A stretch of 64,000 nt of DNA from Candidatus Omnitrophota bacterium (GTDB lineage: Bacteria; Omnitrophota; Gorgyraeia; Duberdicusellales; 4484-171). Of the stretch, positions 43,435 to 45,945 are shown piece after piece; position 1 is the stretch's first letter; each line of letters opens with the position of its first letter. The translations under genes and the position numbers were made by a program. Below the pieces are notes generated by a model, which was not told the DNA's origin, made no database searches, and saw nothing but the letters and a program-made list of their open reading frames with translations. The stretch is from assembly GCA_021735045.1 (NCBI GenBank), contig JAIPHU010000003.1, positions 304 through 64,303 on the forward strand. The letters run 5' to 3'.

Positions 43435-43947
43435 TTAGGTTAAATGCTTATGGATACCCTTGTATTCTGTGGTTTTTTCTACTCTAAAAAATACAAGTTG
43501 AGCTATGCGCGCATTTTCTTTTATCTTAACCCCAGCTGGATTTTGCACAGATAAAAGAAACTCCCCCTTACCTGAAAAACCTGCATCCCAGACCCCATGA
43601 GAACTAAAGCACCCCATGCGCAAAATAGAGGTACGGCTAAAAGCCAATGCCGTTAAATTATTAGGTAAATTTATTATCTCGTTAGTTTTAATTTTATAAG
43701 AACCCGGAACAAGGCTCCACCAACCATATTTATCTTCTGGATTTTTTTTCTCAAGAACAACTTCCTCTCCTTCCGGAATTATTCTTTCATCATTAGAAAA
43801 ATCCAATGACCCAGCCTTTAGGAAAGTTGACAATTTAGCTACAGTTAAATCAACTCCGTTTGGAGTAAGCTGTTTTTCTAGGTTTATATAGTTTTCGATT
43901 AGATCTTTTCCTTCAATTAAATCTCTGATTTCTTTTTTGTTTAACAT
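43435..43947 (-). CDS. dcd: dCTP deaminase / dUTPase-family protein (short Dcd-like)
   Basis: AFSRTSILRMGCFSSHGVWDAGFSGKGEFLLSV matches the dUTPase-fold motif III/IV region. 170 aa. Confidence 0.55.
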   Translation of the reverse strand: MLNKKEIRDLIEGKDLIENYINLEKQLTPNGVDLTVAKLSTFLKAGSLDFSNDERIIPEGEEVVLEKKNPEDKYGWWSLVPGSYKIKTNEIINLPNNLTALAFSRTSILRMGCFSSHGVWDAGFSGKGEFLLSVQNPAGVKIKENARIAQLVFFRVEKTTEYKGIHKHLT

Positions 43948-44383
43948 GATATTTTATCTCCTCTATTGCATCTTTAGGTGTTTCTTTTTTTATTATTCCT
44001 TCTATATCCCAGCTATCTATTCCTACCACAATTTTACCTTCCGATAAAGCAAAGCCTATTTCTGAAAGAGTACCATATTTCCCATCAACTGCTACTATAT
44101 AATCTGCCGACCTAACTACCAAGGTATTACGCACAAAGCCAAGGCCCGTAGGTATTTTAATATCTAGATAATTGTTTGCTTCTTTGCCGTCATAAGAAGG
44201 CAAAAGCCCCACAGTAACTCCTCCTGACTGTTTTGCCCCACAACAAGCTGCTTCCATAACCCCTGGGCCTCCACCACAAACTAGAACCCAGTTTTCTTGA
44301 GCAATAAGCTCCCCAACAACTTTTGCTGTTTTGTAAGCTTTTTCTGAACACTTTGAACCACCGATTACTGCTATATTTAACAT
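43913..44383 (-). CDS. LOG/TIGR00725-family Rossmann nucleotide-binding protein
   Basis: VCGGGPGVMEAACCGA and DGKYGTLSEIGFAL motifs (GGGxGxM / GGYGTxEE pattern). 156 aa. Overlaps dcd by 35 nt. Confidence 0.6.
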   Translation of the reverse strand: MLNIAVIGGSKCSEKAYKTAKVVGELIAQENWVLVCGGGPGVMEAACCGAKQSGGVTVGLLPSYDGKEANNYLDIKIPTGLGFVRNTLVVRSADYIVAVDGKYGTLSEIGFALSEGKIVVGIDSWDIEGIIKKETPKDAIEEIKYHVKQKRNQRFN

Positions 44384-44395
44384 GAGTTTTAACTT

Positions 44396-44513
44396 TTATC
44401 CTTTATCCTTTATCCTTGATAGTGTCCCTGGCAGCCCCGACGCTCGCACTCCGTGTTCGGTCGGGAGATTCGGCCTACATTTCTGGCTCCATCCTCCCCT
44501 TTTTACATTTATC
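44396..44513 (-). ncRNA. GC-rich structured island plus (TTATCCT)x3 tandem repeat between tRNA-Arg and the LOG gene; candidate ncRNA of unknown class
   Basis: 44424-44513 is ~65% GC in a ~33% GC genome (ccctggcagccccgacgctcgcactccgtgttcggtcgggagattcggcc). No ORF support. The track ORF 44382-44579 lies antisense to the tRNA and is probably spurious. Confidence 0.3.
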
Positions 44514-44585
44514 TACCCCTTAGGAGAGTCGAACTCCTATCTCAGGCTCCGGAGGCCTGCGCTTTATCCATTAAGCTAAAGGGGC
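44514..44585 (-). tRNA. tRNA-Arg (anticodon CCG)
   Basis: Reverse-complement GCCCCTTTAGCTTAATGGATAAAGCGCAGGCCTCCGGAGCCTGAGATAGGAGTTCGACTCTCCTAAGGGGTA. Confidence 0.8.
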
Positions 44586-44611
44586 AAGATATCCATTGAG
44601 CTACAGGGACT
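44586..44611 (-). repeat. Degenerate tandem copy of a tRNA 5' acceptor/D-arm segment abutting tRNA-Arg
   Basis: Minus-strand GTCCCTGTAGCTCAATGGATA versus tRNA-Arg GCCCCTTTAGCTTAATGGATA (17/21). Confidence 0.45.
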
Positions 44612-44676
44612 AAGTTGAAATAAACTTAGCAACTACTAAATCTTACCGCAATTAGGGTATTTTGTAAATTTATCTG

Positions 44677-45945
44677 CTAAAATTGTTTTCCTTTATGAAA
44701 AACTTTTTCGATTTTTCCTTGCAGTTTTCGGCCGAGAAAACAAGAATTTTTGGATTTAGAATAAAAGTTTTCTTTAGAGACTACCCACTCTTTATCCGGA
44801 TTAAAAATAATTAAATCTGCATCGGCTCCAACTTTAATTGATTTTTTCTTTATTTCTAAAATTTCAGCAGGGTTGGTTATAAACTTATCTAGCAAACTCT
44901 GCCAGCTTAAAAATTTCTTTTTAATAAGTTCTGTAAATGCCACCGAAAGCTCTGTTTCCAGCCCAATTGTCCCGAACTCAGCTCTTTGAAATTCAATATC
45001 TTTTTCATTCTCTGTATGAGGAGCATGATCAGAAGCAATTACATCAATTACGCCATCAGCTAAAGCTTGTTTGATTGCTAAAATATCCTCTTGGTTGCGT
45101 AAGGGTGGATTGATTTTTTTGTTGGTATCAAAACTCCAAAGATCTTTTTCCGATAATGAAAAATAGTGGGGAGCAGTTTCTGCGGTAACCTGAACTCCTT
45201 TCTTTTTAGCTTTCGCAATAATCTCTATGGATTCCTTACAGCTTACGTGAGCAATGTGTATTTTTGCATCAGCTTTTTTTGCTAACTTTATGTCTCTAGC
45301 TACTCTCATAAACTCGGCTGACTTTGGTATTCCCCGCAAACCAAGACAAGTCGAACTAAAGCCTAGATTGAGCACTCCTCTTTTTGATAAAGTTTTATCC
45401 TCGCTGTGGCAGATTACAGTAATATTGTTTTTCTTAGCTTGCTTTAAAGCTTCTAGCATCAGTTGGCTATTATCCACTGAATCACCATCATCGGTTATAG
45501 CTTTTATCCCTTCTTTAGCTAATCTTTCTATATCACCAAGCTCTTTGCCTTTTCTGCCTTTGGTTATGGCTGCAGAAAGAAAAACATCAACAAAAGCTTC
45601 TTGTTTAATCTTTCTTTTTAGGTATTTTACTGTTTCTCTGGAATCTATCGCTGGTTCTGTATTTGGCATAGCTAAAACCGAACCTATTCCGCCGGCTAAA
45701 GCAGCTCTGGTACCAGTTTTAATCTCTTCTTTATCTTCCCTGCCTGGTTCACGTAAGTGAACATGCATATCTATAAGCATCGGCAATACTATCTTTCCTG
45801 CCGCATCTATAATTTTATCAATCCCTTCTGGATTAATAGCTGTTGCGATATCAATTATCTTGCCCGCCTCGATTAAAATATCTTCTTTCCTAGATCGGCC
45901 GGTACCGGCCCTAACTACTTTTGCATTTTTAATCAAAGTTTTCAT
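44677..45945 (-). CDS. pyrC: Dihydroorotase
   Basis: DMHVHLREPG metal-binding motif, 422 aa. Confidence 0.85.
   Translation of the reverse strand: MKTLIKNAKVVRAGTGRSRKEDILIEAGKIIDIATAINPEGIDKIIDAAGKIVLPMLIDMHVHLREPGREDKEEIKTGTRAALAGGIGSVLAMPNTEPAIDSRETVKYLKRKIKQEAFVDVFLSAAITKGRKGKELGDIERLAKEGIKAITDDGDSVDNSQLMLEALKQAKKNNITVICHSEDKTLSKRGVLNLGFSSTCLGLRGIPKSAEFMRVARDIKLAKKADAKIHIAHVSCKESIEIIAKAKKKGVQVTAETAPHYFSLSEKDLWSFDTNKKINPPLRNQEDILAIKQALADGVIDVIASDHAPHTENEKDIEFQRAEFGTIGLETELSVAFTELIKKKFLSWQSLLDKFITNPAEILEIKKKSIKVGADADLIIFNPDKEWVVSKENFYSKSKNSCFLGRKLQGKIEKVFHKGKQF

Follow-up and report, generated by a model that had tools for sequence, protein, structure and literature searches.

tRNA genes are known as landing pads of large integrative elements, which leave single 3′ fragments of their target behind. 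Homing, in which an insert spreads between alleles of one gene, is known for introns and, without an intron, for cassettes of free-standing endonucleases such as the seg genes of phage T4. Prophages, integrative and conjugative elements (ICEs) and genomic islands have been described as sources of tRNA gene fragments (PMC9897764), and in the archaeon Caldiarchaeum subterraneum a disrupted tRNA-Thr(GGU) has been read as mobile-element-driven replacement within a population (Sugahara et al., 2012; PMC3293823). Here we analyse a locus in a 64,000-nucleotide (nt) stretch of DNA from a Candidatus Omnitrophota bacterium (the window), where what appears to have landed in a tRNA-Arg(CCG) gene is essentially another copy of the same tRNA, leaving both halves of the old gene, at the same positions in separate events and in unrelated genomes. 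We put at about 0.8 the probability that this is a tRNA-Arg(CCG) gene nested in the wreck of another one, the inserted cassette having replaced the resident gene, whose relics are inert. We found no precedent for nested or interrupted bacterial tRNA genes in the searchable literature.

All outer and inner pieces lie on the minus strand; positions are those of the window, and tRNA positions are those of the plain resident tRNA-Arg(CCG). Along this strand the stop codon of pyrC (44677) is followed by a 66-nt spacer, the 21-nt fragment GTCCCTGTAGCTCAATGGATA (44610–44590), the tetranucleotide TCTT (44589–44586), an intact tRNA-Arg(CCG) gene (44585–44514), the 23-nt segment GATAAATGTAAAAAGGGGAGGAT (44513–44491), GGAGCCAGAAATGTAGGCCGAATC (44490–44467), a 32-nt hairpin (44466–44435) and CTGCCAGGGACA (44434–44423), after which CTATCA, three copies of AGGATAA and 12 nt lead to the ATG (44383) of a LOG-like gene of the TIGR00725 family (44383–43913). 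The gene order pyrB-pyrC-(tRNA)-LOG-dcd-Zn ribbon-YjbQ-Fpg is conserved among Ca. Omnitrophota relatives, which were compared through loci fetched for the closest homologues of the LOG-like protein (numbered within L001–L036, where L001 is an independent Logan assembly of the window locus). The LOG-like protein itself points to a Ca. Omnitrophota MAG as its source. A single plain tRNA-Arg(CCG) stands just upstream of LOG in about ten of the relatives (L002/3, L004–6, L020, L021, L022–27, L028, L029 and L036). These resident-type genes, for example GTCCCTGTAGCTCAATGGATAGAGCGTTGGCCTCCGGAGCCAGAAATGCAGGTTCGACTCCTGCCAGGGACA, are 93–99% identical among themselves, and L032–35 carry at the same spot a plain gene of a divergent type, ~78–82% identical to the resident one.

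Joined together, the 21-nt fragment and the GC-rich stretch on the other side of the intact gene can be aligned colinearly with the resident-type genes and differ from them at 3 of ~58 nt (~95% identity); strand and order are the same, and the native flanks are kept. The fragment matches positions 1–21 of L004, L020 and L021 at 21/21 and comprises the acceptor 5′ strand, U8 and A9, the D-stem 5′ strand and the D-loop. Positions 36–61 (GGAGCCAGAAATGTAGG-CCGAATC), which run from the end of the anticodon loop through the anticodon-stem 3′ strand, variable loop and T-stem 5′ strand into a degraded T-loop, match at 21/24 with a 1-nt gap; relative to the plain orthologues, the T stem carries one C>T, and the T-loop one T>C and the loss of 1 nt. 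Positions 62–73, consisting of the T-stem 3′ strand, the acceptor 3′ strand and the discriminator A, match L004, L020 and L007 at 12/12, and the native 3′ flank CTATCAAG is similar to TTATCAAAG in L004 and TTACCAAG in L007. Perfect complementarity, which the initial annotation does not mention, links the first 7 nt of the fragment (GTCCCTG, 44610–44604) with the final 7 paired nt of the GC-rich stretch (CAGGGAC, 44430–44424), and in the minimum free energy (MFE) structure of the whole 206 nt the outer ends pair over 13 base pairs (bp), enclosing everything between them.

Resident positions 22–35 (13–14 positions) are missing, and with them the D-stem 3′ strand, the anticodon-stem 5′ strand and the first anticodon base. 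Where a plain gene reads GGATA|GAGCGTTGGCCTC|CGGAGCC, the window has a 99-nt insert (44589–44491) composed of TCTT, a complete tRNA-Arg(CCG) of foreign type and the 23-nt tail, the end of which pairs with the start of the insert. The 32-nt hairpin (TCCCGAC, an 18-nt loop and GTCGGGG) separates C61 from C62 in the outer T stem and is lacking in all plain orthologues. The outer gene has thus lost essential tRNA elements (the missing positions, the T stem split at C61|C62 and the degraded T-loop), and neither its 5′ piece nor the relic as a whole was detected as a tRNA by ARAGORN or Rfam, even at E≤10. Judging by this alignment, the original tRNA-Arg(CCG) gene of the lineage has been interrupted twice, and the 21-nt fragment and the GC-rich stretch are its two halves.

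The initial annotation had described the GC-rich stretch as a 90-nt island of ~65% GC in an AT-rich genome and had proposed a structured non-coding RNA (ncRNA). The island is indeed the GC-richest 90-nt stretch of the window, although 65% holds for its core only: the best 90-nt window (44410–44499) reaches 60% GC, a value attained by 0.008% of all such windows (mean 33.9%, standard deviation 7.2%), while the originally proposed 44416–44505 has 57.8% and a 73-nt core (44424–44496) has 64.4%. The next-best 90-nt windows (59% GC) sit on tRNA-Leu and tRNA-Glu, and the GC-rich core that had been noticed is the 32-nt hairpin; fragment and island are GC-rich because they consist of tRNA sequence and a GC hairpin. 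The complementary segments reported for the island are present, and by our alignment they are the inserted hairpin (CCCGAC/GTCGGG) and the old T-stem/acceptor junction, CTGGCAG being the reverse complement of CTGCCAG.

An independent ncRNA at this place (resembling signal recognition particle (SRP) RNA, 6S RNA, transfer-messenger RNA (tmRNA) or RNase P RNA, or a riboswitch of LOG) would account for the GC peak, the 6–7 bp GC hairpin within it and its position directly upstream of LOG without support for an open reading frame (ORF). When all Rfam 15 models were run, with gathering thresholds for the whole window and with E≤10 for the 421-nt region 44300–44720, only tRNAs were called, with no SRP RNA, 6S RNA, tmRNA or RNase P RNA and no match for the island; the sole non-tRNA match was a chance long non-coding RNA in the AT-rich flank (E=0.61), and ARAGORN found no tmRNA. 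The island alone folds no better than shuffled sequences (minus strand, z = +0.64; plus strand, z = −0.59), ~10 syntenic relatives lack it and have only the plain tRNA upstream of LOG, and 36 of its nucleotides align colinearly to tRNA positions 36–73. Island and fragment both align to one resident tRNA gene of the relatives, and the island is not an independent ncRNA of unknown family. The ncRNA reading, to which we assign very little credence, is wrong and already largely refuted. Readings of the island by eye as SRP RNA, tmRNA, RNase P RNA, tRNA-Sec, a type II tRNA, a pseudoknot like that of hepatitis delta virus or a bulge–helix–bulge (BHB) motif did not fit either, and are moot given the orthologous plain tRNA. 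For annotation this removes a false ncRNA candidate, and it illustrates that, where the genome is AT-rich, a dead tRNA gene can look like a structured RNA of high GC content.

The intact inner gene scores 68.2 bits as RF00005 (44514–44585; gathering score 29) and is called by ARAGORN at 44513–44586 with the anticodon CCG, in agreement with the initial annotation. Its acceptor stem is topped by a G1·U72 pair, and CCA is not encoded. The same wobble occurs in several tRNA-Arg(CCG) genes (window 44513–44586, L018:5023–5096 and L037:4196–4269), and for these genes the ARAGORN call is shifted by one base relative to Rfam (74 nt, anticodon at position 35). Sequence identity of the inner tRNA to the resident type is 74–79%, with the acceptor, anticodon and T stems all different, and identity to the inner tRNA of a second nested locus (L007, below) is 90%, with compensatory changes in the T stem. 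As the only CGG-decoding tRNA seen in the window it is presumably functional: CGG is used at 4.6 per 1000 codons and occurs in 34/48 ORFs. The other three tRNAs of the window (Leu, Val and Glu) have plain flanks.

The 5′ fragment had been regarded as a duplicated part of a tRNA abutting the intact gene. It is tRNA-derived and an unusual 5′-side piece, as proposed, and lies 4 nt (TCTT) away from the gene. It does not duplicate that gene, which it matches at 17/21 in contrast to 21/21 for the relatives' orthologue. Local tandem duplication of the resident tRNA with decay of the outer copies could give the order 5′ fragment, gene, 3′ fragment, and a 19-nt direct repeat (D2), over which the fragment is 89% identical to the start of the intact gene, is consistent with it. 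However, the fragments match the relatives' gene near-perfectly and the complete gene differs from it at 21–26% of positions, which is the reverse of what duplication predicts. Since the inner tRNA is of another lineage, simple duplication is excluded, and we consider decay after local duplication barely credible.

Nests of this kind recur. Another Omnitrophota metagenome-assembled genome (MAG; GCA_021735105, loci L007 and L009 on the same contig) has the same architecture as the window: outer positions 1–21, TCCC, an inner tRNA, a 26-nt tail ending AAAGGGGCGGGGC, outer positions 35–61, a 20-nt insert and outer positions 62–73. The 20-nt insert is a perfect palindrome (CCTGCCTGCCGGCAGGCAGG, L007:2371–2390) at the same C61|C62 site and is unrelated to the 32-nt hairpin of the window. 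The palindrome is built from local T-stem sequence. C61|C62 may be a second site at which insertion is targeted, or a relaxed quasi-palindrome may make it prone to mutation.

A deeper nest (L018:4863–5320 and L019:8490–8960) was retrieved from JGI metagenomes by pattern scanning and is represented in two samples that differ by one single-nucleotide polymorphism (SNP), which falls within a relic. It lies downstream of alaS in an unrelated metagenomic bacterium whose AlaS is ~50% identical to named Elusimicrobiota proteins. The locus has two 5′ fragments ending …GGATA and two intact tRNA-Arg(CCG) genes, with at least two nested levels and, in addition, a tRNA inserted in a T-loop: intact gene #A is followed by the 3′ part of the inner fragment, which carries intact gene #B on a 17-bp stalk in its T-loop, and then by the 3′ part of the outer fragment. 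Upstream, a possible third tRNA-like fragment (GGATCCATAGTTTAATGGAT) precedes a near-copy of the leader of #A (TCCTGAAAAAAAT versus CCCCGAAAAAAAT). In a relative of this organism (L037–40; AlaS 77% identical) the spot is occupied by one plain tRNA-Arg(CCG), 92% identical to #A. In all four nest levels with both flanks kept, the outer gene is retained to A21 and resumes at C35 or G36. In L019 a gene for an AbiEii/DUF2204-like nucleotidyltransferase (type IV toxin family; L019:5168–5749) lies directly upstream of alaS and overlaps it; no such gene was seen there in the plain relative L037.

The insert ends also resemble one another. Terminal inverted repeats of the form YCCC…GGGR, the kind of ends found on miniature inverted-repeat transposable elements (MITEs) and insertion sequences (ISs), are present at 6/7 of the insert boundaries read, although the terminal motif is very short. 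In the window the ends are (A)TCTT…AGGA(T), the left terminus TCTT (44586–44589) pairing together with A21 with AGGAT of the right terminus, as judged from sequence and MFE fold; the left termini equivalent to TCTT are TCCC in L007 and TCCC or CCCC in L018. The 3′ part of the window insert is made up of an A-rich spacer, the acceptor 3′ strand of the inner tRNA for a second time, and the right terminus. Its AAAGGGG is complementary to CCCCTTT in the 5′ strand of the inner tRNA, so that the whole pairing reads ATCTTGCCCCTTT / AAAGGGG-AGGAT. The L007 homologue of this part is AAAGGGGCGGGG; L007 has the ends TCCC…GGGG, and TCCCGCCCCTTT pairs with AAAGGGGCGGGG over 12 bp. In both loci, left end and inner 5′ acceptor strand thus pair over 12–13 bp with the distal second copy of the acceptor 3′ strand. 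The boundaries in L018 (TCCCGC / GCGGGA and CCCCGAA / TTCGGGG) extend to 7–17 bp, with CCCCGCACCAATTA…TAATTGGTGCGGGG around tRNA #B, and its intact tRNAs stand on leader/trailer stalks of 17–20 bp (fold z = −4.4 and −4.6). The T-stem hairpin of the window ends TCCCGAC…GTCGGGG. The right ends of L007 and of the outer level of L018 (L018-1) share AAGGGGCGGGRCGGAGCC, and their left ends share TCCCGCYCCTT, which indicates that the ends of these cassettes have a common origin although the hosts are unrelated.

By protein identity (76–82% versus 85–90%) the window falls outside the clade of L007, L004 and L002, and within this Omnitrophota group only the window and L007 are nested. Fourfold-degenerate sites differ by 40–52% for the window and by ~25–30% for L007, whereas the relics differ at ~3/58 positions; the probability of three or fewer differences under neutrality since the splits is 1e-9 to 1e-3. 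Outside their tRNAs the two inserts can hardly be aligned, and the T-stem inserts of the two loci have nothing in common in sequence. Because the relics show few differences, the non-tRNA inserts are unrelated and no other member of the group is nested, separate recent events are favoured: on age and INDEPENDENCE, the simplest reading of the sequences is that related cassettes were inserted twice, separately and fairly recently, at the same positions.

The same conservation, ~95% against a neutral background of 50–70%, could instead reflect a functional RNA made from the relics, in which the outer acceptor stem and the stalks would be a scaffold that directs processing of the inner tRNA, gives a two-piece tRNA-like molecule or regulates LOG. 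The outer acceptor stem is 7 bp long and extends to up to 13 bp with TAGCTC/GGGCTG, A20 is kept, C35 is kept in L007 and L018, and the full 206-nt fold with the outer strands paired has z = −2.2. The junction helix shows one compensatory change (U-A in the window versus C-G in L007), and the C4>T of the L007 5′ relic still pairs, as U·G. However, the outer T arm is broken in L007 and in the window, where the T-loop is degraded and 32 nt are inserted; the outermost relic of L018 has 2 acceptor mismatches, and the sole SNP between L018 and L019 is in a relic. Most relatives do without such an RNA, and recent insertion explains the conservation equally well, so a function of the relics appears quite improbable to us.

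All sources are MAGs or metagenome contigs, which raises the question of an assembly chimera between two strains with different tRNA-Arg alleles. The independent Logan assembly L001 is identical over the whole region, and L018 and L019 come from different samples. The junctions hold unique non-tRNA sequence, and the blocks common to the two tRNA types do not exceed ~14 nt, which is below assembler k-mers. We regard a chimera as hardly conceivable.

A more familiar origin would be the scar of an integrase: a phage or ICE integrated, restored the tRNA with a part of its own and was later deleted, leaving attachment (att) fragments. This is how tRNA fragments normally arise (PMC9897764), and the likeness extends to partial copies beside a complete gene of the same isoacceptor, to breaks in the anticodon loop and T arm and to preserved function. 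The 3′ relic begins in the anticodon loop, the second insert lies in the T arm, and the inner acceptor 3′ strand is repeated 13–15 nt downstream in the window and L007. Williams, in 2002, is said to have named the anticodon loop and the T arm as the two classical sublocations of integration crossover. A classical event, however, yields one chimeric complete gene and one identical fragment, linked by direct repeats, whereas here there are fragments on both sides, the arrangement is nested rather than tandem, the repeats are inverted, and the complete gene is entirely foreign: both of its acceptor strands and its anticodon and T stems differ from the relic type, to which it is 74–79% identical. 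The insert is ~100 nt and 13 nt of target are lost. No integrase or cargo is left at any of the three loci; the neighbours are pyrB, pyrC, LOG, dcd, Zn-ribbon, YjbQ and Fpg genes, and the 14-kb region of L019 contains no recombinase. Secondary deletions with the same end points would moreover be needed in at least three separate events, and an integrase scar is therefore unlikely. The C. subterraneum case is alike in that the 5′ fragment of one tRNA allele precedes a complete gene that has the same isoacceptor type but is another allele. There, in contrast to the present locus, the host is an archaeon, a recombinase-encoding element of 1.8 kb separates the fragment from the gene, a 3′ relic and nesting are both lacking, and the new allele has BHB introns.

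A cassette mechanism is proposed for the nested genes, where small tRNA cassettes with short inverted repeats (YCCC…GGGR) would enter a resident tRNA-Arg(CCG) at fixed points, after A21 and before C35, and also in the T arm. Insertion could be catalyzed by some site-specific activity, or an allele that is already nested could serve as the template for homology-guided copying, whereby identical junctions would arise automatically, as in homing. Every such event would kill the resident copy and replace its function, and repeated events would build Russian-doll nests. The inner tRNA would then be the working CGG decoder, and the relics would be debris of the leader and of the trailer or the 5′ untranslated region of LOG, lacking any function of their own. 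With only 4 nt to the relic there is no room for a promoter of its own, so the inner tRNA would be transcribed from the upstream context of the old gene; excision by RNase P and RNase Z and addition of CCA would follow. That the cassette is mobile is what we infer from structure, homology, recurrence and terminal repeats, all of which are observed.

Resemblance to homing systems lies in the spread of an insert into the intact allele of one gene, with the flanking halves serving as homology, in the identical junctions and in an incoming copy that differs at the disrupted segment. The differences are that no endonuclease gene and no splicing are involved here, and that rescue is provided by a whole replacement gene rather than by RNA excision. 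Split, permuted and multi-intron tRNA genes of archaea and algae likewise have breaks at the D-loop, anticodon and T arm and helices between the flanks. In contrast to these, the host is a bacterium, the interruption is a complete tRNA and the outer exons cannot rejoin because positions 22–34 are gone: the joined relics lack 13–14 positions, including C34 and the whole anticodon-stem 5′ strand. A group I intron does not apply either, given that no intron model of Rfam matched and 72 of the 99 nt of the insert are tRNA. Like the present inserts, MITE-like elements and the intervening sequences of bacterial rRNA are short, lie in loops of a structured RNA gene and form a stalk from their terminal inverted repeats, but here there is no target-site duplication, the cargo is a tRNA like its target, and no link to a transposase family was made. 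In a check for dispersed copies like those of MITEs or ISs, confined to the 64-kb window, the hairpin and fragment motifs occurred once each; the fetched loci likewise contained no other copy of the 32-nt hairpin, except L001, or of tRNA-Arg 5′ fragments.

Several observations weigh against replacement by an inserted cassette. No enzyme able to do the insertion is encoded near the nests, whose neighbours are housekeeping genes. No target-site duplication is found, the flanks being …GGATA and CGGAGCC…, and 13 nt of target are missing. Because of these three features, no standard transposition or integrase chemistry fits. Transcription and processing of the inner tRNA are predicted from sequence, and the good preservation of the relics could mean selection, that is, function. 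Nests were found in only three organisms, in four or five levels; the GTDB scan gave only the genome of L007 and the JGI scan only L018/L019, and the genome of the window was not returned by the genome-contig scan. That scan (AGCTCAATGGATAH-N{86,116}-GGAGCCA) produced 10 matches, one real (L009) and nine by chance in coding DNA. The patterns used were strict, so the nest counts are lower bounds. Five scans of viral contigs (inner tRNA, nest junction, right-end motif and two generic nest patterns) returned nothing or two chance coding matches, and there is consequently no sign of a phage donor.

Individual junction chemistries were also considered. A crossover by a tyrosine or serine integrase, non-templated C-tailing, a palindromic anticodon-loop target (CTCCGGAG) and a deletion between GAGC repeats each failed to fit, and so did IS200/IS605 insertion 3′ of a pentanucleotide, although both sites follow GRATM. 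An IS200/IS605-type transposase gene (Y1_Tnp, PF01797; L036:2784–3482) is present between the Zn-ribbon gene and fpg in L036, ~1.2 kb from the plain tRNA-Arg(CCG) of that locus; no link to the nests emerged.

A promoter-like site (TTTACA-17-TAAGAT, 44668–44640, minus strand) precedes the outer 5′ relic by ~30 nt, and the whole nest may be transcribed from it, but as the consensus scan gave 3 sites with 2.6 expected it is weak evidence and not significant by itself. No terminator-like site was found on the minus strand between the tRNA and LOG. The heptamer (TTATCCT)x3 of the initial annotation, (AGGATAA)x3 on the minus strand, was recovered by Tandem Repeats Finder at 44395–44417 (period 7, 3.3 copies, 100% matches). 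The tRNA-to-LOG spacers of relatives hold lineage-specific A/T-rich tandem repeats with units of ~6–8 nt, AAGTTAA-like in L004 (2455–2500), GGGTAAA/GGGTATA-like in L020 (1308–1500) and CCTAAA(C)-like in L021 (1319–1500), and since these repeats differ among relatives the spacer is a fast-evolving low-complexity region. By this comparison the AGGATAA heptamer is one spacer variant and not part of the nest. Inverted copies of the spacer repeats follow in L020, L021, L002 and L029 and can form long imperfect hairpins.

tRNA-Arg(CCG) and the TIGR00725-type LOG-like gene form a conserved pair across Omnitrophota, even where the upstream neighbour has changed (pyrC, a 415-aa MJ0043_C-like gene or, in L032–35, an FMN reductase gene). 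In several relatives the tRNA begins 0–10 nt after the preceding stop codon, which suggests co-transcription. The LOG-like gene of the window shares 35 nt (43913–43947) with the dCTP deaminase-like gene downstream of it, and this overlap is conserved, at 11–23 nt, among relatives.

As a more speculative proposal, which we hold to be possible though not probable, the cassette could be a minimal self-targeting element whose sole cargo is a tRNA-Arg(CCG) on an inverted-repeat stalk, which enters resident tRNA-Arg(CCG) genes at fixed positions (A21|C35 and the T arm) and replaces the resident copy so that the host cannot lose it, and which spreads between bacteria as distant as Omnitrophota and a lineage whose closest named AlaS relatives (~50% identity) are Elusimicrobiota. 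If true, this would be a homing-like gene-replacement parasite that needs neither splicing nor a linked enzyme gene. If the process is active, it would represent a new and extremely small form of selfish gene replacement and a route for horizontal turnover of tRNA genes. It would also offer a natural case of a tRNA expressed inside the transcription unit of another tRNA, and a system in which the exchange of tRNA genes between lineages could be studied.

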